This document shows positions 17,830 to 46,152 of a DNA stretch of 64,000 nucleotides, one piece after another (the first letter of the stretch is position 1; every line of letters starts with the position of its first letter). The position numbers and the translations under genes are program-made. Origin of the DNA: a virus (lineage: Duplodnaviria; Caudoviricetes); IMG/VR virus record IMGVR_UViG_2925282926_000001, positions 32,001-96,000 of that record; one strand, 5' to 3'. The notes under the pieces were generated by a model. The model saw nothing but the letters and a program-made list of their open reading frames with translations, ran no database searches and was not told the origin of the DNA.

Positions 17830-18096
17830 TCATTTACTCATGGCCCTATAAAACTCAAGTGCTTCCTTGTCGACCTCAAGGGACTTTTTCTGAACCTCAA
17901 TGGAACGCTGAGACAATTCCTCATTGCGCTTGTTCAGTTCTTTTGTTTGTTGCAGCAGTTCCGTGCTTTCATTGTAGTATTCGATCCTTTCCAGGCGTTC
18001 GATCGAAAACAATATTCCGGAGATGAACCAGCAGACGACGGTTGCAAAGATTACACCTGTCAGCACATGTTGTCTGTACTCTTTCATGCTCTTCAC
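17830..18096 (-). CDS. Small single-pass membrane protein with coiled coil
   Basis: Hydrophobic N-terminal helix then a charged coil. Confidence 0.6.
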   Translation of the reverse strand: MKSMKEYRQHVLTGVIFATVVCWFISGILFSIERLERIEYYNESTELLQQTKELNKRNEELSQRSIEVQKKSLEVDKEALEFYRAMSK

Positions 18097-18112
18097 CTCT
18101 TCATGTAATTTG

Positions 18113-18421
18113 TTAGCAAGTGCTGCGAGCGGTAGCCCGGACTTTAGGGAAATACGTCCGTTTCGGCATGTTGAATTTGGCTTTGAAATACGGAGTTTCC
18201 AGCGCGAACGACGGTACTTCTGGAGTGCTGATATACTCCATGTATTCCTCTTTCATTTCTAAAATACCCGCCGCCATCCTGCGAAGGCGTTCCAACTCCA
18301 CGTCGTAATAGTCCACAAGTGGTTGTAAAGCGACCAACAAGGCTTTCTCTAACTCCCTCATTGATTGCCTGAGATTTTCAAATGCTTCCCCGACCGTGAT
18401 GTCTGCTCTGATAACCTCCAT
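18113..18421 (-). CDS. Hypothetical protein
   Basis: SD GGAGGTG, 102 aa. Confidence 0.6.
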   Translation of the reverse strand: MEVIRADITVGEAFENLRQSMRELEKALLVALQPLVDYYDVELERLRRMAAGILEMKEEYMEYISTPEVPSFALETPYFKAKFNMPKRTYFPKVRATARSTC

Positions 18422-18501: not shown

Positions 18502-19236
18502 TTAGTTACTCCACAATTCCACCTTAACTTTAGATGTCTTGATGTATCGTTCTGGTTGTTCTGCTGGAAGTCCCAAAGGACTCAGACGAGCTGTGCAAAT
18601 GTATTCTCCTGGTGTAAGTAATCCGGTTATCTCTTCATATGCTCCCACTTGATCGTCATTCATTACCAGTACAAATTGTCTTTCCTGTGCCGCGTTGTAC
18701 TGTTTTCCTGTGAGCAACACCAAGGAAATGTTCTTTCTGTTCTGTCCTTCGTCGCCTGCAAGACCAACCGTGTGCAGTGCCATTTTGATAGGTCTGTCCA
18801 CATTTCCACCTGCTCCTGCTGAACGATAAATCCTGATCACCGCACCAGCTCCCGATGTGTTGGACTGCAACATTGTGATGCCTGCGGTGCTGTCGGATGT
18901 CTTTATGCCTATTTGCGCTGTCTGCCATGTGTTCCCGGCGAACTGCAACGACTCAAGCGTGAATTTAATCGCTGTAAACTTGGTCGGATCGAACTTTACC
19001 TTGGTGCGAATATCTGCGTATGAGTTGTTGGTCCGTGGAGCTGTGACAGTCATTTCACCTCTGCCTGGCAATGGTTCGAATGTCGTACCAGCTCCCACAA
19101 CCTCCGTAGCGTCCGCCGCAAGCTTGGTAGCCGTTTCTAGCCACGCTGGGATTGTACCGTCTGTGAAATCAGCCACCAAAGACTTGTACACCTTACCGTA
19201 TGGGATTAATTTGCCATCAGGTCCAGTAATATGCAT
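18502..19236 (-). CDS. Beta-rich (lectin/ConA-like?) protein; homolog of 44211-44891
   Basis: Shares ADFxDGTxPAWL, AGDEGQNRKN, NDDQVGA and LWSN with the prophage 2 protein. Confidence 0.75.
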   Translation of the reverse strand: MHITGPDGKLIPYGKVYKSLVADFTDGTIPAWLETATKLAADATEVVGAGTTFEPLPGRGEMTVTAPRTNNSYADIRTKVKFDPTKFTAIKFTLESLQFAGNTWQTAQIGIKTSDSTAGITMLQSNTSGAGAVIRIYRSAGAGGNVDRPIKMALHTVGLAGDEGQNRKNISLVLLTGKQYNAAQERQFVLVMNDDQVGAYEEITGLLTPGEYICTARLSPLGLPAEQPERYIKTSKVKVELWSN

Positions 19237-19239
19237 GAC

Positions 19240-20244
19240 CTACACCTCCACTGAGTAGGCAAGGCCCACATTGTTGTCCGTATTGTAATACACATAGATT
19301 GTCCCATCGAAAACCGCGACTGTCATAGACTGCATGTTGGTTGTTTCCCAAGGCAGTGTCGGAATGTCCATAATAAGTTTCGGCTTATCCTTGAGCGTTC
19401 GCCAGTCATCCGATATTAGGGCAATGGCGGGACGGGCTACGGTTGTTACCCCGCCAGAAGCGTATGCGGAAAGCATACCCAACCACCACGTTTGTCCTCG
19501 GTACACAAATAATCCAGCATTGGACCGAGAGAAGTTTTCGGTACTATTGAGGGTTGCATCATTTCCGCCGAGCATCATTCTCGGATCACACAACCATTGT
19601 CTACCGTTGTGGGATACCCACATGGCCTTACGACCAAAGTCACCGCCGCCCATTACAGAAAACCCGTACCATTTTTCTGCTGTGCGGAACACTGCGAAAT
19701 ACCCTGTGTGTCCGTCTCCTGGGAAGTTTGGGGGCTTATCAAGCAAAAGTCCGACTCTTGTCCATGTGATCATGTCCGTAGATGTCGCAAGTGCCGTTGA
19801 TTGATTTATACCAAGTCCACTTTGTTGGTAGTACATGAAGAACAGTTTTTCCGTCTCATTCCACATGACAAAAGGCGTTTCCGTTGAATTACCTTCGACT
19901 GTATCGACGTACACCTCACCATGTCTGATCCACGGCCCTTTAGGATCGTTGGCATAAGCTAATCCGATGCCACCACGGGCATTATGGTTCGTGGAGTACG
20001 TTGCATAAAAACGGCCTTTAGCGTTCGGGATCAAATGACCGACCTCAATAGGTCTGAACCAATATATACTCCCTGTTTGAGCCTTTGCCGCCGTATAGAT
20101 TGGGTCACCCTCAAGCTTTACGAACTTAGGAATGTACTGTTCCCTGCCCCTGGTGTCGGAAAATCCATAAGGAGCAATACCTCTGTTGGCTTTCTGGGCT
20201 TCGCCCATCGCCGCCGCGCCCATCTTATAGCCTTTATCAGCCAT
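19240..20244 (-). CDS. Five-bladed beta-propeller glycoside hydrolase-like protein (GH43/32/117/130 superfamily); homolog of 44891-45898
   Basis: GIGLAYANDPKGPW, TETPFV...FMYYQ, LATSTDMITW blade motifs. Confidence 0.75.
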   Translation of the reverse strand: MADKGYKMGAAAMGEAQKANRGIAPYGFSDTRGREQYIPKFVKLEGDPIYTAAKAQTGSIYWFRPIEVGHLIPNAKGRFYATYSTNHNARGGIGLAYANDPKGPWIRHGEVYVDTVEGNSTETPFVMWNETEKLFFMYYQQSGLGINQSTALATSTDMITWTRVGLLLDKPPNFPGDGHTGYFAVFRTAEKWYGFSVMGGGDFGRKAMWVSHNGRQWLCDPRMMLGGNDATLNSTENFSRSNAGLFVYRGQTWWLGMLSAYASGGVTTVARPAIALISDDWRTLKDKPKLIMDIPTLPWETTNMQSMTVAVFDGTIYVYYNTDNNVGLAYSVEV

Positions 20245-20247
20245 CGC

Positions 20248-20718
20248 CTACACAACCCCCTTGATGGAAAGCGTACCGCCACCTGTTGGCGCTGTGTACT
20301 CAATACGTAGTCTGCAAAGAGCCGGGATAGTGTATGAAACAACGTCACCCACATTGGCTGTATTCACCTGCGAGATACTTGCCCCGTTTTCGCGAATGCC
20401 AGGCAAGGCCGTTTTCCGATCGTTGATGTCGATTAAGCATGATGTAAACGTTCCAGTTGTGCTTGCTCCACCACCAAAATAGATAGTGATATCCGTGTCT
20501 TTGGCTACTGCACTCTCGGCTGTCGGTGGATACGTTGCACTACCTGCCGCCGATCCAGCACCTAAAATAGTCACCGTTCTAGGGCCACCAGAAGAACCGC
20601 CTTCAACTTGCTTCATCGGTAGCGGGAAGTCTGCACCCACCGCCCTCATTTTCCCGTTTTCGTCTCGCGCATAAATCTGCTGATTTGCAAGCAAATGACT
20701 ACCATCATACTTCGACAC
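20248..20718 (-). CDS. Small Gly/Thr-rich beta protein heading the GH-like cassette (156 aa)
   Basis: Start moved to the GTG after SD AAAGGAG; the longer ORF call overlaps the tRNA-like element. Confidence 0.7.
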   Translation of the reverse strand: MSKYDGSHLLANQQIYARDENGKMRAVGADFPLPMKQVEGGSSGGPRTVTILGAGSAAGSATYPPTAESAVAKDTDITIYFGGGASTTGTFTSCLIDINDRKTALPGIRENGASISQVNTANVGDVVSYTIPALCRLRIEYTAPTGGGTLSIKGVV

Positions 20719-20764: not shown

Positions 20765-20832
20765 GGCTCCCTGGTGGAATCGAACCACCACATGCCGGAT
20801 CTCTCCGGACTCTACCGTTGAGTTAAGGGAGC
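20765..20832 (-). ncRNA. tRNA-like element lacking an anticodon loop (GAGA tetraloop)
   Basis: GCTCCCT TA ACTC-AACGGTA-GAGT CCGGA-GAGA-TCCGG CATGT GGTGG-TTCGATT-CCACC AGGGAGC C: perfect acceptor, D and T arms. Confidence 0.8.
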
Positions 20833-20835
20833 GCA

Positions 20836-20862
20836 ATAAAAAAAGCCGCCTTTGGCGACTTC
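20836..20862 (-). terminator. Rho-independent terminator after the zinc-ribbon gene
   Basis: AAGTCGCC-AAA-GGCGGCTT followed by TTTTTATT. Confidence 0.75.
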
Positions 20863-21573: not shown

Positions 21574-22245
21574 TTATCCAACATTCTTTATGAGGTCTTC
21601 ACTGTTGTTCCGCACATTACCGACTTCCTTCGGTACCTCGTAAGCTCGCATTTCTGACGCTCGATACGGCTTGAGCATTCCGAGCAATGACTCGACATCA
21701 TCATTATCTTTTCCAAGCCACTCAGCCTCATCCTCGGGCCGCAGTATAACCGGCATACGATTATGAATGTCTTCCATGAGACTGTTTGGCTCCGTTGTAA
21801 TAATTGTACATGTGCTCAGCTTGTTTCCGTCCGGATCCGTCCAGGTATCATACAGACCAGCAAGCGAGAATATACGGTCATCCTTCATCAAGATGCGCAT
21901 TGGCTGCTTTGCCGTTCCTTCTTTCTTCCATTCATAAAATCCGTTCGTGGGGATGATGCAGCGTTTGGAACTGATCAGACGTTTGAAGGCTGGCTTCTCT
22001 GCCAGTGTCTCGGCTCGAGCATTGATCATCTTATTCCCGATCTTGTCATCCTTTGCCCAAACGGGTACCAGGCCCCATCGGAGCGAACCCAATCGATTTC
22101 CTTCCTTGCTGCCTATAATTGTCGGGATGTACTGCATGGGTGCTGCGTTATAATTAGGCTTGTACTCAAATCCTTCAGAAACGGAAGCATAGTACCTGTC
22201 CATTATTGCGTCTAAAGGGTCAGTAATTGTGAATCTACCACACAT
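21574..22245 (-). CDS. SOS response-associated peptidase (SRAP/YedK/HMCES family)
   Basis: MCGRF start with catalytic Cys2, YNAAP, WGLVP, INARAET, GFYEW, IHNRMPVIL. Confidence 0.95.
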   Translation of the reverse strand: MCGRFTITDPLDAIMDRYYASVSEGFEYKPNYNAAPMQYIPTIIGSKEGNRLGSLRWGLVPVWAKDDKIGNKMINARAETLAEKPAFKRLISSKRCIIPTNGFYEWKKEGTAKQPMRILMKDDRIFSLAGLYDTWTDPDGNKLSTCTIITTEPNSLMEDIHNRMPVILRPEDEAEWLGKDNDDVESLLGMLKPYRASEMRAYEVPKEVGNVRNNSEDLIKNVG

Positions 22246-22281
22246 ACAAAGCACCTCCTGTATTGTCTTTACAATATATAA

Positions 22282-23139
22282 TCACACTATAAATTGATCA
22301 AACACTGGGATACGTAGCAAGCCGGATTTGGTCCAGTTTCGTATTTTGACCCTGGCTTGTATCCTTGGCTCCAGGTAAACGTTGTTCTTGTCCTCACCAG
22401 TAACGAGCTGCTGGCATACTCCACGAAACGCCTGCTTATGTTTAGGACTTGGGCCATGCTCGATGATTCCTACCGGACGCATCTTGCCTGACGGATCTGG
22501 AACAGCAGCAAGCCACCCGAATTCAGACTTTTTGTATCCTGTAATGAACACATCAGCATATGACCAGTTAATGACCTTCTGCCACTCTCTGGACCGCCTG
22601 CTGACGTACTGACTGTCCTTGTGCTTGCCAACCACACCCTCCATACCCATTGCCTCTATTTGGGCGTATAGTGCCTCTCCTGCGCCTTCAATATGCGGTA
22701 CCACTCCAAAGCTATTAGACGGTAGTTGGAGCCCTAGCAGAATTGCCTTGCGCTCTATAAGAGGTAGTTTGCGGAGATCCTGGCCTCGAAAAAAGAGAAT
22801 ATCAAATATGGCGAACGTAGCCGGCAATGTCTTGGTGAGCTGCTGAACCTTCGAGTGTTGCCGAGTGCTGAACCGGCTCATGACTGCCTCAAAGTCGTTC
22901 AATCCTGTCTCTGGATCGGTGCAAGCAACCTCTCCGTCCAAGATAATGTCAGAGTCAAAGGGCAGTAGTAATTCAGGGTACTGCCGAGTGCAATCATTGT
23001 TGTGGCGTGTATATAACCGGACGTTGCCGGATTGTTGCGAATATATAAGCCGGTGACCGTCTACCTTCGGTTCAAAGATGTAATCCGAATGCGAGAATGG
23101 ACCCGGTGCTGTTTCAAGTAACATAGGGCTAATAAACAT
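22282..23139 (-). CDS. ATP-dependent DNA ligase (LigD ligase-domain type)
   Basis: Motif I EPKVDGHR, LDGEV, FDIL, EGVVGK, SGLLRIPVF. Confidence 0.92.
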   Translation of the reverse strand: MFISPMLLETAPGPFSHSDYIFEPKVDGHRLIYSQQSGNVRLYTRHNNDCTRQYPELLLPFDSDIILDGEVACTDPETGLNDFEAVMSRFSTRQHSKVQQLTKTLPATFAIFDILFFRGQDLRKLPLIERKAILLGLQLPSNSFGVVPHIEGAGEALYAQIEAMGMEGVVGKHKDSQYVSRRSREWQKVINWSYADVFITGYKKSEFGWLAAVPDPSGKMRPVGIIEHGPSPKHKQAFRGVCQQLVTGEDKNNVYLEPRIQARVKIRNWTKSGLLRIPVFDQFIV

Positions 23140-23202
23140 AAAAAAACACCTCAACCCAATTATAGCGGTTTGCTACAAAGGATTGAGACGGTAAGTTTTG
23201 GT

Positions 23203-24204: not shown

Positions 24205-25386
24205 ATGCCTGTCTATAAGGATGAGAATGTAAAGAAAAATCCGTGGTTTTATGTGCTGGAAATTGGCAAGGGGAAAAATAGAAAGCGGACTAAAAAGCGC
24301 GGTTTTAAAACAAAGAAAGAAGCTCAGGCTGCACTTGTTGAAGCCGAAAACAACGTTAACAACGGTACGTTTATAAAACGTGAAAAGACACTCCTTCCGG
24401 ATCTGATGAATCTATGGCTCAAGACCAAAGAACACTCTATAGCGGATGTCACATACAAAACTTATGGACGACACATATCTTTGCACATAAATGACTATTT
24501 CGAAGATTTCCAAGCAATGGATTTGACTGACGAGGACTGTCTTGATTTCATCAAGCATCTGCGTGTTGAGAAGGAACTCGCTTCTCGATCAGTTAAAGAT
24601 GTATTCAAAGTGTTACGCTCGGCTCTTGATTGGGCTGTGCTGAAGAGTAAGCTTCAAAGAAATGTTACCCGCCTCATTGATATGCCAGCAGTCGAGCGTC
24701 AAGAAATCATGGTCTGGAACGCTGATCAGGTTCGGGAGTTTGATAAGCACATACAAGAACATCACGATTATGTTGCCTTCCTTCTTGCTTATGGGGCTGG
24801 CTTGAGACAATCAGAAGCATTGGCACTCAGATTCAAGGATGTCAATTACGAAAGCAAAACTATATCTGTTGTTCAAACCTTATCACATGATGGCAAGAAG
24901 ATCAGAACGGGTGCAAAAACTGCCTCAGGAACGAGATTGGTTTCTGTGGATGATAAAATCATCAAGGAGATTCAAAAGAGAAAGCGGGTGGTTGCTGCTG
25001 AGAAGTTAAAAGCGGGTGGAGTATACCAAGACAACGACCTGATTGTGGCAACCTCTGTAGGAACTCCTGTTACACCCAGAAACCTACTCAGGACGTTCTA
25101 TAGATACATGGAGAAGCTGGAGATACCAAAGATCACAGTCCACGATCTGAGACATACACATGCCACTCTGTTACTCAAGCAAGGTGAGCATCCGAAGATC
25201 GTTCAGGAGCGACTTGGACATGCCAGCGTTAAAATAACAATTGATCTTTATAGCCATGTTTTACCGAATATGCAGAAAGAGACTGCGGAACGATTTGGGG
25301 ATTTCTTGTTTGGTACCAATTTAGGCACCAAAAATACGAATGGCACCATTTCGGCACCAGACACCGAAAATAGAGAACTTATTTAG
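24205..25386 (+). CDS. int: Tyrosine integrase
   Basis: Arm-binding KRGFKTKKEA; catalytic GLRQSE, HDLRHTHAT, RLGH, LYSH. Confidence 0.96.
   Translation: MPVYKDENVKKNPWFYVLEIGKGKNRKRTKKRGFKTKKEAQAALVEAENNVNNGTFIKREKTLLPDLMNLWLKTKEHSIADVTYKTYGRHISLHINDYFEDFQAMDLTDEDCLDFIKHLRVEKELASRSVKDVFKVLRSALDWAVLKSKLQRNVTRLIDMPAVERQEIMVWNADQVREFDKHIQEHHDYVAFLLAYGAGLRQSEALALRFKDVNYESKTISVVQTLSHDGKKIRTGAKTASGTRLVSVDDKIIKEIQKRKRVVAAEKLKAGGVYQDNDLIVATSVGTPVTPRNLLRTFYRYMEKLEIPKITVHDLRHTHATLLLKQGEHPKIVQERLGHASVKITIDLYSHVLPNMQKETAERFGDFLFGTNLGTKNTNGTISAPDTENRELI
25311..25360 (+). repeat. Arm-type integrase binding repeats (GG[T/C]ACCA x4)
   Basis: tGGTACCAatttaGGCACCA...tGGCACCAtttcGGCACCA near att. Confidence 0.55.
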
Positions 25387-25434: not shown

Positions 25435-25507
25435 TGGAGCCTAGGGGGATCGAACCCCTGACCTCATCGCTGCCAGCGATGCGCTCTCCCAGCTGAGCTA
25501 AGGCCCC
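25435..25507 (-). tRNA. tRNA-Ala(GGC), CCA not encoded; probable attachment site
   Basis: GGGGCCTTAGCTCAGCTGGGAGAGCGCATCGCTGGCAGCGATGAGGTCAGGGGTTCGATCCCCCTAGGCTCCA; G3-U70 pair. Confidence 0.97.
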
Positions 25508-31731: not shown

Positions 31732-32036
31732 TACGCAGCACCTCCGTTAGCCAGCGTTTCCCAAATGTCGATGATCGCAAGGTTAAGGCTGGCCGCTTCT
31801 ACTTCAGTGGCAGAAACACGTTGTTCCAACTCCGTTAACCCCTCAACTGGTGTACCCTGCTCTGATTCAGATTTCAACGATTCGTCCAACACCGCTTTTC
31901 CGTTTTGCCAACGAAAGTATCCAGCGTTTATCCCGATGGGTAGCGGTGTTGGGATATCAACTTCCTGGTAACCTACATATTCGTACTCAATAATATCGCG
32001 GATGATGTCGCCATCCAATTTGATATAAAACTTCAT
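31731..32036 (-). CDS. Putative tail fibre assembly/chaperone protein
   Basis: Follows the fibre gene; C-terminal coiled coil. Confidence 0.55.
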   Translation of the reverse strand: MKFYIKLDGDIIRDIIEYEYVGYQEVDIPTPLPIGINAGYFRWQNGKAVLDESLKSESEQGTPVEGLTELEQRVSATEVEAASLNLAIIDIWETLANGGAA

Positions 32037-32046
32037 AAGGCACCTC

Positions 32047-33900
32047 CTATTGAATTAAAGCGATGATCTTACGACTGTCTCCGGATGATCCGCCTTCTTT
32101 GGCGTAACCAATAACTCCAACGTCTGTCTCTGACATAAGAGCACCCATGCTGCCTACCTTTGCGACCTTCTCATTGGGTACTTTAAATACGTTGACATAT
32201 GGAGAAGTATTAGATACGAGAGCTAAGTAACTTCCGTCAGGAGATATCGATAATCGGTTTGCAGATTGACTCTTTGCATCTCTTGAGTCAGTAGCCCGGC
32301 ACACCTGATCTCCTCGTTGGCTATATGTCAGAATGTCTGGACTGTTGTTAGACTGGACTAAGAATAGTTTCATTTTGCTCGGATGATACACTACATCCGA
32401 TGATTGAACAGGAGTTTTAGTCTGAGTATCAGGAACTTTACTGAAAACATCTCCTACACGCTTGTATGTTATTAATGTAGCTCCGCCGAAATGCGCAACT
32501 GTTAGATAATTTTCGTCATATGAAAAATCAAGACCTCCACCTAGTCCGGGAGGAACTATGGAAGGGTCTGTGATCTTTGACAATATGTCACCAGATCGTT
32601 TGTAAATCAAGATATACGGGGCTACTGTGTAAGAAATTGCTATAAATACACCGGAAGGTGAGATTGCAATATTTCTAGGTGTGCTAGAAAGCGGATTAAC
32701 ACTCGGGTCAGCCAATTTTGTGAAAGTGTCACCTGAACGCTTATACATCGCAAAATAAGGAGATACAGAAAGTGTCATATAAATATAAGTTCCGTCGTTA
32801 GCAGCACGGATGTATGTTACAGATCCTCCCGGTAACACTGTCGGGTCAGGCAACTTAGTAAAGGTATCACCAGAACGCTTATAGATCATAAAGTAAGGAG
32901 ATCCATTAACACCTACATAAAGGTAATCTCCATTCGGCGAGAATGCCAATCCGTTTGGTATGCCTCCAGGCAGAACACTCGGGTTGGCTAATTTGGTGAA
33001 TACATCCCCTGAGCGCTTGTATATCAATAGAAACGGGGTAGCATTCGACCCTACAGCCATATAATCGTTTGTCATGGCTATTCCGATGCTTGCCGCAGGA
33101 GGAGTTGTTGACAGAGCTGGTAACAGTTCTAATGGCGGAGTATACATCCTTACCATATCCCCTTGCGCGATATCCTCGCTATAGGTGACTGTCATTTCCG
33201 TCTGACCAGGTATTTCCACCTCCCCTCCGCCACTATCTGCTAAAAAATCCGACCCTACTTTGCGGAATGTGTACGGCTTTCCAACCAACAGATCACCAGA
33301 TCCGTAGGCTGTGCCGTCCTGTTTCTTGAGCGAAACCGCACCTAGACCGTTGATATTGACAGTAGGGTTTGTCGCACTTGCTACGTGTGGTACTAGCGTT
33401 ATCCCAAACCCGTCAGGTAGTGATCCAGGCGCAGGATTTAACGTAACTACATATGCGGAGGACGTTCCGGCAGTCGTGGCGTACCCCGGTTGACGGATGT
33501 AGTTCGCAGTAACCGCGCCAATCTTCTCGTCAGTATAGGTATTAGCGTCGTCCAACGCCTCATCCGCAAAGCTCTGCGCGGAAACGATAACATCCGAAAT
33601 ATTAGCGCGGCCGGCCTCGTAGTCATACGCCGTGTGATTCCGCGCCGCCGGTGATCCAGCCGCCCACCCTTTCGCAGTTCCTTCGAATCCACGCGTACAT
33701 CCGGTGAGCGTGTTGCCCGTTTTCCCCGTATATAAGATCGTTTCGGCAGTCTCATCGCCGCCCACCGTTACGAGGTTCGGAGCCGTCGGCAGTTTAGACG
33801 CGTCGAGTACGTCAATGCTCGTAGCTGATGCGGTAATATCTGCGGCGAGCTCCGTTCCCGGACTGTTTACCATCGCCGCGTACATCGGTAATTGCGCCAT
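32047..33900 (-). CDS. Tail fibre / receptor-binding protein with C-terminal beta-propeller
   Basis: About seven ~44-aa repeats (PYxxIYKRSGDxFxKLxDP). Confidence 0.8.
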   Translation of the reverse strand: MAQLPMYAAMVNSPGTELAADITASATSIDVLDASKLPTAPNLVTVGGDETAETILYTGKTGNTLTGCTRGFEGTAKGWAAGSPAARNHTAYDYEAGRANISDVIVSAQSFADEALDDANTYTDEKIGAVTANYIRQPGYATTAGTSSAYVVTLNPAPGSLPDGFGITLVPHVASATNPTVNINGLGAVSLKKQDGTAYGSGDLLVGKPYTFRKVGSDFLADSGGGEVEIPGQTEMTVTYSEDIAQGDMVRMYTPPLELLPALSTTPPAASIGIAMTNDYMAVGSNATPFLLIYKRSGDVFTKLANPSVLPGGIPNGLAFSPNGDYLYVGVNGSPYFMIYKRSGDTFTKLPDPTVLPGGSVTYIRAANDGTYIYMTLSVSPYFAMYKRSGDTFTKLADPSVNPLSSTPRNIAISPSGVFIAISYTVAPYILIYKRSGDILSKITDPSIVPPGLGGGLDFSYDENYLTVAHFGGATLITYKRVGDVFSKVPDTQTKTPVQSSDVVYHPSKMKLFLVQSNNSPDILTYSQRGDQVCRATDSRDAKSQSANRLSISPDGSYLALVSNTSPYVNVFKVPNEKVAKVGSMGALMSETDVGVIGYAKEGGSSGDSRKIIALIQ

Positions 33901-44210: not shown

Positions 44211-44891
44211 TTAATTGCTCCATAAATCGATCTTGACTTGCGATGCGACCAACGTCTTAGCTGCGGCAGCGCTTGTAGTGAGCCGCGCAATACACTGTAA
44301 GTCCCCGTCGGTAAACGAGTCGGTTACGTCCGCAAGGGCTCCGACCTGGTCGTCATTTTGTACGTAGACATAAACGCGCCTACCGGTTGACGTTGCGTAC
44401 TGCTGTCCGGTAAAGAGGCGGACCGTCAAATTCTTGCGGTTCTGTCCTTCGTCTCCCGCCGTGTTAACCGTGAAAAATACCATCTTCGTAGGGTAATCAG
44501 TATAGGTCCCGTCCGCTTTGTATGCGCGGATAATGCCACTCGGCTGATTGACGTTGTGGAAAAACGTTATCCCCGCCTTGCTGTCCGCGCTCTTAATACC
44601 TATCTGCGCCGATATCTGGATGTTCCCGTTAAACTGCAGACCTTCGATTGTGTACGCAATTTCAGTAAACTGCGTACTATTGAACACTGCCGTCGATTTT
44701 AACTCTACGGAACTGCCTGCGGTTGCGGCCGTCGTCAGGCGAAGTAGCCCACGACCTGGTGGCGGCTCAAATGCCGGAGTTCCTACGGTTGTCAGCCACG
44801 CCGGCAGCGTGCCGTCTAAAAAGTCAGCGCAGAGTTGTTTGTGTATCTTACCGCTCGGTATCTCTTTACCGTCTAGTCCGCGATGTAACAT
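44211..44891 (-). CDS. Beta-rich (lectin/ConA-like?) protein; homolog of 18502-19236 (226 aa)
   Basis: True start MLHRGLDG at the TAATG overlap; shared motifs with the prophage 1 protein. Confidence 0.75.
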   Translation of the reverse strand: MLHRGLDGKEIPSGKIHKQLCADFLDGTLPAWLTTVGTPAFEPPPGRGLLRLTTAATAGSSVELKSTAVFNSTQFTEIAYTIEGLQFNGNIQISAQIGIKSADSKAGITFFHNVNQPSGIIRAYKADGTYTDYPTKMVFFTVNTAGDEGQNRKNLTVRLFTGQQYATSTGRRVYVYVQNDDQVGALADVTDSFTDGDLQCIARLTTSAAAAKTLVASQVKIDLWSN

Positions 44892-45898
44892 TACGCCACC
44901 TCCGTATGAACAAGTCCGACATTGTTGTCCGTGTTGTAGTAGACGTAGATGTTTCCGTCCAATACGGATACCATCATCGATTGCATATTCGTCGTCTCCC
45001 ACGGTAAAGTCGGAAATGGAACGAGATCTATCGGACGGTGAAGGAGCTGCCGCAAATCAGGACTTATGCGTGCAATGGCCGGACGGGCTACGGTTGTGAC
45101 TCCGCCAGAAGCATACGCGGACATCATTCCGATCCACCACATTTGTCCGCGATACATGAAGAGTCCGGCGTTAGAGCGTGAGAAATTCTCACCGTAGGAT
45201 AGCGTTGCGTCATTACCGCCGAGCATAGCGCGAGGATCAGAGTACCAAAACTTTCCGTCGTTTGAGTACGATATCGCTTTACGGCCATAATCTCCGCCGC
45301 CCATAACGCTGTATCCGACCCACTTTTCCGCGAACTTGAATACGGCAAAGTAACCGGTGTGTCCGTCTCCTGGGTAGCCATCCGGTTTGTCGAGTACGAT
45401 TCCTATCCGCGTCCACGTCAACATATCGGGAGAGGTCGCAAGTAGCGTAGACTGGTTGATTCCTGCTCCTGATTGCTGATAGTACATATAAAACAGCCGT
45501 TCTTTTTCGTTGTAAATTACGAACGGTGTCTCGGTCGAATCTCCCACAACGGTATCAACGTAAATCTCACCGTAGTTCTTGAACGGACCTTTCGGATCGT
45601 CTGCGTAAGCAAGTCCGATACCGCCCCGCGCATTATGGTTAGTAGAGAACGTCGCGTAGTACTTGCCGAGTGCATTCGGGATCAGTCCGTCGACTTTAAT
45701 TACGCGGAACCAATATATACTTGGCTTCCCGGACATCGCCGCAGTAAATATCGGTTGTCCGTTCAGCTTCGTAAACTTCGGCGCGTACGACTCAACTTGC
45801 GCACCAAATCCGTATGGCGCTACGCCATCATTCGCTCTCTTAGCGGTGAGGGCCGCCTTTCTTGCGCTATTCCTTGCGATCGTGTCACGTCCGGCCAT
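44891..45898 (-). CDS. Five-bladed beta-propeller glycoside hydrolase-like protein; homolog of 19240-20244
   Basis: Long identical blocks such as STNHNARGGIGLAYA, PGDGHTGYFAVF, SAYASGGVTTVARPAIA. Confidence 0.75.
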   Translation of the reverse strand: MAGRDTIARNSARKAALTAKRANDGVAPYGFGAQVESYAPKFTKLNGQPIFTAAMSGKPSIYWFRVIKVDGLIPNALGKYYATFSTNHNARGGIGLAYADDPKGPFKNYGEIYVDTVVGDSTETPFVIYNEKERLFYMYYQQSGAGINQSTLLATSPDMLTWTRIGIVLDKPDGYPGDGHTGYFAVFKFAEKWVGYSVMGGGDYGRKAISYSNDGKFWYSDPRAMLGGNDATLSYGENFSRSNAGLFMYRGQMWWIGMMSAYASGGVTTVARPAIARISPDLRQLLHRPIDLVPFPTLPWETTNMQSMMVSVLDGNIYVYYNTDNNVGLVHTEVA

Positions 45899-46152
45899 TA
45901 GCCGACACCTCCCGGAATAACGCGAACATAACCTCGGTAGGCTGAATTTCCGCTAATAGAAAGCGTTGTGAACGGATCAACGCGCTCATCCAATGCGTCC
46001 CCGCCTTTTACTACTGTTACAAACTTTCCGGCTGTCACGGTAATGTCCGCTGTCCCATCGTTAAAGACAACGATGTAATTTGCGGTGTTCTTGATTGGTA
46101 CGTTCGCCGTCCCCGTTCCTGAAAACGGGTCTCTTGCGATTGGGTCCGCCAT
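45898..46152 (-). CDS. 84-aa beta protein heading the cassette (spike-base-like?)
   Basis: VFNDGTADITVT, beta-rich; SD GGAGG; lies in the head module. Confidence 0.65.
   Translation of the reverse strand: MADPIARDPFSGTGTANVPIKNTANYIVVFNDGTADITVTAGKFVTVVKGGDALDERVDPFTTLSISGNSAYRGYVRVIPGGVG

Follow-up and report, generated by a model that had tools for sequence, protein, structure and literature searches.

A beta-propeller and lectin-like gene pair in two unrelated tandem Paenibacillus prophages as a candidate particle-borne module directed at host surface glycans

The 64,000-nucleotide stretch of DNA analyzed here (the window; positions 32,001 to 96,000 of IMG/VR record IMGVR_UViG_2925282926_000001) is part of a 123-kb provirus record from a Paenibacillus genome that the names of its homologs put in the P. 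amylolyticus/xylanexedens group, and in which two unrelated prophages lie in tandem. Each prophage carries on the minus strand a three-gene module (18502-20718 in prophage 1 and 44211-46152 in prophage 2) for a small beta protein, a five-bladed beta-propeller, and a concanavalin A (ConA)-like beta-sandwich partner, and all six open reading frames are present. We propose that this module is a particle-borne accessory that targets a host surface glycan and combines a lineage-specific adaptor, a docking arm, and swappable polysaccharide-active cargo; counting the share held by a position at the capsid vertex, we judge the chances of this proposal to be evenly balanced. Its first layer would be a backbone-encoded small beta-sandwich adaptor, of YomS/XepA type in prophage 1 and an unrelated 84-amino-acid (84-aa) protein in prophage 2. 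The second, a short lineage-specific helical arm at the N terminus of the next protein, would dock onto the adaptor or the particle, and the third would be exchangeable cargo, here the propeller with the ConA-like sandwich acting as its second domain in trans. The unit would be expressed late, would sit on the virion, and would bind, cleave, or modify a glycan of the host wall or of its capsule or exopolysaccharide (EPS) at adsorption, and tail-fiber-fused versions would do the same job in other phages.

The main support for a particle-borne role is a modular signature read from sequence. Modular phage receptor-binding proteins and depolymerases, such as those of branched tailspike systems, join a conserved N-terminal anchor to an exchangeable C-terminal enzymatic or binding domain. 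Comparison of related phages gave the same picture of a conserved N-terminal anchor with exchangeable distal domains, and finding exchangeable polysaccharide-active domains behind a conserved adaptor and a lineage-specific arm is, as far as alignments can tell, the signature of such proteins. At locus L075, the portal and capsid protein are 97% identical to those of prophage 2, and both L075 and L073 hold in the slot unrelated genes of 169 aa and of 224 or 217 aa. The window and L075 are homologous in DNA up to position 45894 and again from 44219, just before the gene 3 stop codon, leaving a gap that brackets genes 2 and 3 exactly. Upstream of the break, the 84-aa gene is 95% identical in L075 and 88% identical in L073, both with the other cargo, and by its conservation and gene order it is a backbone gene of the phage, lying between those for the minor capsid protein and the scaffold. 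The N terminus of the 169-aa cargo of L075 (MMARDTIARNNSRRA) aligns with the arm of the prophage 2 propeller (MAGRDTIARNSARKA), an arm that is common to the unrelated cargo of L075 and L073. Other relatives of prophage 2 fill the slot differently: genes of 87, 198, and 759 aa in L074/L085, the last with a Golvesin_C domain and a weak CelD_N match; a single 319-aa gene in L077; and nothing in L076, where the minor capsid gene is followed directly by the scaffold gene. L039, a close relative, keeps a propeller 96% identical to the prophage 2 copy in the same head-module position.

The pattern recurs around prophage 1. In its relative L080/L086 (terS 73% and terL 79% identical), a XepA-family gene (PF27453) upstream of terS is followed by an SGNH/GDSL esterase and then by a pectate-lyase-like beta-helix. 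Both the esterase and the beta-helix start with MDLGK(V/I)A, and the same arm pattern is found in propellers that follow YomS-like genes; at L008, a beta-helix protein follows the propeller-partner pair itself. The 224-aa protein of L075 and a 222-aa protein of L080 showed no relation to the partner-family profile, the 759-aa protein of L074 and a 381-aa protein of L080 had no match among the sequences of solved structures, and an exact database look-up of the L075 224-aa protein returned no record. Thus, as in modular receptor-binding proteins and depolymerases, a lineage-specific N-terminal arm precedes exchangeable carbohydrate-active domains, the slots also hold an SGNH esterase and a pectate-lyase-like beta-helix as alternatives, and the breakpoints flank the cargo. 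The module differs from those systems in that its cargo is split into two genes, its adaptor is a separate small protein of YomS/XepA type or of 84 aa, and its slots, known here from genes, lie upstream of terS or in the head block rather than at the end of the tail genes. A phage-specific adaptor with a portable enzyme/lectin pair had been suggested in the preliminary description of this DNA, which was made from the sequence alone, and the retention of adaptor and arm with other carbohydrate-active cargo, together with the DNA breakpoints, greatly strengthens that suggestion.

The same description had found no homology between the two prophages beyond the module. Over the whole 123-kb record, all-against-all BLASTP gave no other strong match between them, only weak integrase and amidase-type matches, and the sole blastn match joined the propeller genes (19260-20070 and 44911-45721; 68%), leaving nothing else significant. 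The propellers are identical at 222 of 316 positions (70%; BLASTP E 6e-169) and the third proteins at 44% (E 1e-64); the sequence blocks that had been quoted for the propellers are all present in both, and the motifs quoted for the third proteins are shared as well. The first genes, by contrast, are unrelated (BLASTP E 2.3; hhalign probability 0.3%), as had been noticed. Structural gene sets also agreed with the phage types assigned earlier: prophage 1 is a myovirus with a lambda-type head (gpE capsid protein, gpD, ClpP, lambda portal, and gpA terminase) and a tail sheath, and prophage 2 is a siphovirus with an SPP1-type portal, an SU10-type capsid protein, minor capsid protein 2, and a scaffold. 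Synonymous sites of the two propeller copies are saturated (proportion of synonymous differences, 0.79; of nonsynonymous differences, 0.24), and the GC content of each module copy is that of its own prophage. These two features rule out a recent exchange between the co-resident prophages, and because of them the copies are best read as long-resident homologs of old divergence, not as a recently passed cassette.

Elsewhere, the propeller occurs both in tail fibers and in head blocks. In Klebsiella phage ST846-OXA48phi9.2 and a bat-feces siphovirus, it forms the C-terminal domain of 558- to 647-aa proteins whose genes come right after that of a gpJ-like tail-tip protein, and next comes a small protein that has the gene 3 N-terminal motif; other propellers are fused to an Mtd_N fiber domain. 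Propeller folds have been reported in 18% of Klebsiella prophage depolymerase candidates, and their properties in phages were called unclear (PMC12491483). The propeller of ST846-OXA48phi9.2 is homologous to that of the module (34% identity, E 3e-27), but the Klebsiella forms are fused to fiber N termini in the tail module, whereas in Paenibacillus the propeller is a separate protein encoded behind an adaptor gene. The propeller follows tail-fiber or tape-measure genes in L021, L025, and L020, and the pair lies beside endolysin genes in L011 and L009. Placement in the head block was found in prophage 2, in L039, in P. thailandensis L060 (MuF, propeller, scaffold), in L032 (portal, protease-like gene, pair, capsid protein), and in L016 (after the capsid protein). 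In the tree, these copies are spread over two or more separate clades, and by this phylogeny placement in the head block arose at least twice. The 47-kb contig IMGVR_UViG_3300049189_000021 has the pair twice, in copies that have diverged to 42% and 33% identity, one in the head block (L032) and the other after a tape-measure gene, behind a YomS-like 137-aa gene (L025). A PHROG tally over 109 neighbor proteins was too diffuse for use alone. Recurrent head-block placements favor the capsid position proposed in the preliminary description, and tail-block placements and the fiber fusions speak against it. As a separate observation, a Rhodospirillaceae metagenome-assembled contig (PBMU01000004.1; L061-L063) holds a region of terL, portal, capsid protein, a 500-aa propeller protein, and partner in three copies spaced at about 45.6 kb, for which a tandem prophage, a concatemer, and an assembly artifact are all conceivable sources.

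Gene 1 of prophage 1 (20248-20718, minus strand; 156 aa) and its relatives match the C-domain of two solved Bacillus subtilis proteins, XepA of PBSX and YomS of SPbeta (PDB 6i56 and 6i5o; PF27453). The family profile, A6, matched YomS 6i5o at E 9.8e-17 and XepA 6i56 at E 4.9e-15; against solved structures, the YomS-like profile had no other significant match and no sequence link to the spike of the Rhodobacter gene transfer agent. Precomputed Pfam annotation placed PF27453 in neighbors at L008 and L086, with a weak match in a neighbor at L007. Of the two first genes, only that of prophage 1 has this homology. The 84-aa protein of prophage 2 (45898-46152, minus strand), a small beta protein, showed no relation to the YomS profiles (hhalign probability 0.3%), and the nearest structures to its atlas model were cupin-like and small viral proteins. 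In Bacillus, the two genes precede holin and amidase genes, whereas the prophage 1 type precedes polysaccharide-active cargo.

The Bacillus relatives also bring in a different explanation, namely, that the proteins are not part of the particle but act as a soluble exit enzyme, a late product that lysis releases or that is exported with XepA-like help and that strips EPS, capsule, or secondary wall polymers, letting progeny escape without sticking to debris. In PBSX and SPbeta, XepA and YomS are encoded within the lytic cassettes, beside holins and amidases, and XepA was seen during phage maturation but not in mature PBSX and was cytotoxic in plaque assays (PMC6834076). The pairs that adjoin endolysin genes in L011 and L009, the lack of a signal peptide in any module protein (as in canonical endolysins), and the presence of an 88-aa membrane/coiled-coil protein in the prophage 1 unit are consistent with such a role. 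However, lineage-specific arms on unrelated cargo argue for docking to a phage-specific partner, the fusions to fiber N termini in other phages amount to display on the particle, and the window modules are far from the lysis genes of either prophage. We regard a soluble exit enzyme as unlikely, while keeping it in view.

Within the particle-borne reading, one form would place the adaptor on the capsid pentons, where it would carry the propeller/lectin pair as a head appendage. YomS and XepA crystallize as pentamers, and their authors raised a vertex position, by analogy with PRD1 (PMC6834076). Consistent with this form are the head-block modules of prophage 2, L039, L060, L032, and L016, with at least two origins by tree, and the position of the backbone-encoded 84-aa gene between minor capsid protein and scaffold. 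On the other hand, gene position is a weak guide, as the module follows tape-measure or tail-fiber genes in L021, L025, and L020 and one virus has one copy in its head block and one in its tail block, and XepA was not found in mature PBSX; we think a vertex spike unlikely. The proposed logic of a fivefold base with a polysaccharide-binding distal part resembles that of the head spikes of the Rhodobacter gene transfer agent and of the PRD1 vertex complex (P31 penton with P5 and P2). The module differs from both in that no sequence similarity to them was found and in that it is known from genes, not seen on a capsid. Of the overall interpretation offered earlier, the propeller and lectin folds and the adaptor with its portable pair are supported, and the parallel with the Rhodobacter gene transfer agent found no sequence match. 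A wider version, drawn by analogy, would make penton-binding bases of tailed phages out of the YomS/XepA pentamers and of comparable small jelly-roll proteins, the 84-aa protein among them. These bases would carry arm-docked exchangeable polysaccharide enzymes on the vertices, as a swappable system of depolymerases and lectins on the head; the XepA/YomS family would acquire a function, and Paenibacillus would have domesticated one cargo pair for itself. We find this version rather doubtful.

Next in the module is the propeller (gene 2), encoded at 19240-20244 in prophage 1 (334 aa) and at 44891-45898 in prophage 2 (335 aa, with its own lineage-specific arm), both on the minus strand. The AlphaFold2 (AF2) model of the prophage 1 protein, with a predicted local distance difference test score (pLDDT) of 85.7 and a predicted template modeling score (pTM) of 0.83, shows a helix at the N terminus (residues 2-22) and, after it, a five-bladed beta-propeller, the fold of glycoside hydrolase (GH) families GH43 and GH32. 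In Foldseek, GH130 mannoside phosphorylases ranked first. VIA-align gave Z 23.7 to GH130 9fj8 (21% identity), tied with GH159, GH32, GH43, and an N-acetylgalactosamine (GalNAc) deacetylase; the values for GH43 8hcj and GH32 7znr were 22.7 and 22.9, with a root-mean-square deviation of about 3 A over 250-260 residues. The three approaches thus agree with the earlier assignment of gene 2 to a five-bladed propeller of the glycosidase fold group. Pfam GH43 (PF04616) scored the window propellers at 28.6 and 30.2 bits, below its cut-off of 32.2 and over about one blade (residues 74-140), and scored a distant family member, P0029, at 38.3 bits. Across 64 propeller sequences of 25-40% identity, H87, E122, T123, Q148, H179, G181, and Y182 are invariant or nearly so, and this conserved polar set points to a conserved active or ligand site. 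E122 is the only invariant acid (D114 is conserved at 92%), and the alignment shows no evident counterpart of the three catalytic carboxylates of GH43 and GH32 enzymes, the Asp base, Asp modulator, and Glu acid at the propeller center. GH130 enzymes use a catalytic Asp together with basic residues that bind phosphate; a profile alignment paired FPGDGHTGY of the propeller with the FPEKINGKY region of 9fj8.

By its model, the propeller belongs to the GH130/GH43/GH32 fold group. No single family is assignable because the Z-scores are tied across GH130, GH159, GH32, and GH43, and no enzyme chemistry is assignable because the conserved set is not an evident Asp/Asp/Glu triad. The module resembles these families in fold (Z 22-24 over about 260 residues) and in its one GH43-like blade; it differs in scoring below the Pfam GH43 cut-off, in its low identity (10-21%), in its invariant H, E, Q, H, and Y, and in that its domains are separate polypeptides from phage-borne genes. 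The literature on the propeller-fold GalNAc deacetylase (6n1b-type metal site) gave nothing usable, and a deacetylase-like chemistry for H/E/H/Y is an idea only.

The same structural matches are the starting point for a cytoplasmic role, in which the propeller would be a GH130/GT108-like phosphorylase or transferase, the partner its lectin-like subunit, and the substrates sugar phosphates, nucleotide sugars, or precursors of wall polymers; such an enzyme might remodel the host surface (superinfection exclusion), glycosylate virion proteins, or feed metabolism. The best matches of the propeller are cytoplasmic GH130 mannoside phosphorylases (Z and identity as above), and some GH130 enzymes are also transferases (PMC12814180). 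The missing signal peptide, the terminator-bounded prophage 1 unit with its weak promoter-like site, and a chromosomal copy that is under strong purifying selection with a decayed adaptor would all suit such an enzyme. However, the tied Z-scores single out no family or mechanism, the fiber fusions and the depolymerase-type cargo in the same slots fit an extracellular target, and the prophage 2 module is translationally coupled to head genes with no promoter between. We hold the cytoplasmic role to be quite improbable.

Gene 3 is encoded on the minus strand at 18502-19236 in prophage 1 (244 aa) and at 44211-44891 in prophage 2 (226 aa; ATG start at 44891). The AF2 model of the prophage 1 protein (pLDDT 93.3, pTM 0.91) is a ConA-like lectin/glucanase sandwich, in keeping with the earlier description of the third protein as a beta-rich lectin candidate, and has Z of about 15 to L-type lectins (Emp47p), GH16, and polysaccharide lyase family PL7. 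A GH16-type enzyme was considered and rejected for gene 3: the fold fits, but ExDxxE-type catalytic acids are not conserved. Among 81 aligned members of the family, no acidic residue is conserved, and G8, G14, P30, W32, G48, and G119 alone are nearly invariant. The family comprises 327 representatives at 50% clustering in an exhaustive profile search. Gene 3 is an obligate partner of the propeller: it comes next in about 27 of 30 loci, and natural propeller-gene 3 fusions exist (P0074, P0170, L029, and L038); a word-based search for longer, fused homologs, which is a weak search, found none. Because of this adjacency and the four fusions, the pair is, on comparative grounds, one functional unit, a two-domain protein split in two. 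GH32 and some GH43 enzymes carry a C-terminal beta-sandwich after the propeller, and the propeller with its ConA-like sandwich mirrors this two-domain layout. We infer that the pair acts on a surface glycan, as an enzyme or as a lectin.

A copy of the pair is also found without a phage. In at least 14 Paenibacillus chromosomes (loci L040, L041, L044-L055, L057, and L058), a syntenic locus lacking phage structural genes encodes a 332-aa propeller and a 228-aa partner, both intact, except that in L058 the copy is broken, with pieces of 240 and 87 aa. The locus retains a 61- to 90-aa YomS-like remnant that keeps AANVGNVVD.S and, in some genomes, the TL.VK.VV end. Its flanking genes encode a chromate transporter, OsmC, TetR, and an M1 peptidase that is variably present, as is a serine recombinase beside the locus. 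Among these copies, the propeller has a median ratio of nonsynonymous to synonymous divergence (dN/dS) of 0.063 and the partner one of 0.045, with dS near 0.35. In a midpoint-rooted tree, the chromosomal clade is nested within the prophage clade, which suggests that the chromosomal copy was domesticated from a phage. This phage-free locus, the YomS/XepA membership of gene 1, and the old divergence of the two copies are points that the preliminary description lacked.

Several findings weigh against a particle-borne module. Since the pair is under strong purifying selection at the phage-free locus, these substitution rates imply that it has a selected function without a particle, and the chromosomal copy is poorly explained by any proposed model, a purely virion role included. 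The closest structural neighbors of the propeller are the cytoplasmic GH130 phosphorylases, and the canonical glycosidase carboxylate triad is not evident. Mature PBSX is reported to lack XepA (PMC6834076), and in prophage 1 the unit resembles a moron in having a terminator at either end. Finally, PHROGs, PADLOC, and NCBIfam had no match for any module protein, and genes 1 and 3 had no tblastn match in cultured phages, so that the module has no proteomic precedent.

The two modules are organized differently. In prophage 2, the three genes are joined by TAATG overlaps (gene 1 with gene 2, and the propeller stop codon with the start of gene 3) and lie between the minor capsid and scaffold genes of the head operon, with no promoter or terminator signal between the module and the flanking head genes. 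This coupling within the head operon, with no intervening promoter or terminator, supports late expression of the prophage 2 module. In prophage 1, the module forms a unit with two small genes (17830-18421, minus strand), one for a 102-aa protein and one for the 88-aa protein, which has one hydrophobic segment and a coiled-coil-like tail; library scans found no family for either, and no homologs lie beside other modules. Terminator-like hairpins bound this unit at 20862-20842 and 17578-17552, and it contains the weak promoter-like site. The upstream hairpin (20842-20862, minus strand), of intrinsic-terminator type with a 9-bp stem, 5 GC pairs, and a T run, closes the preceding unit just before the module. 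Between it and gene 1 sits a tRNA-like element (20765-20832, minus strand) that scored 42.7 bits with the Rfam tRNA model (gathering score, 29), has a 4-nucleotide loop in place of the anticodon loop, and was not called by ARAGORN. This element overlaps a spurious ATG at 20793. A 181-aa reading of gene 1 from that ATG was rejected, as its first 25 codons run through the tRNA-like element; the gene starts at the GTG at 20718, behind the ribosome-binding site AAAGGAGTGG, which is the module end given in the preliminary description, and the resulting 156-aa form is held letter for letter in a protein atlas.

An integrase gene (24205-25386, plus strand) between the two prophages and a tRNA-Ala(GGC) gene (25435-25507) mark their junction. 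Between the integrase gene and the prophage 1 module are genes for an SRAP (YedK-like) peptidase and an ATP-dependent DNA ligase (21574-23154, minus strand), and the SRAP gene recurs beside the module in P. amylolyticus PAE4 (L056) at 93% identity. The tail region of prophage 2 encodes a 617-aa protein (32047-33900, minus strand) with a weak match to a 7-bladed lactonase-type propeller family, which may be this prophage's own tail receptor-binding protein.

If a particle-borne module is the right reading, the XepA/YomS family, which is structurally solved but an orphan, would be given a function open to test, as a platform on which exchangeable polysaccharide enzymes dock. A widespread, uncharacterized phage family would be defined, with the layout of a split two-domain carbohydrate-active unit. 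Furthermore, cargo slots for host recognition would lie outside the tail-fiber region, upstream of terS and within the head block, which would bear on host-range prediction and on depolymerase mining. The chromosomal copy under purifying selection would then represent a phage-derived glycan tool that the Paenibacillus host has kept.

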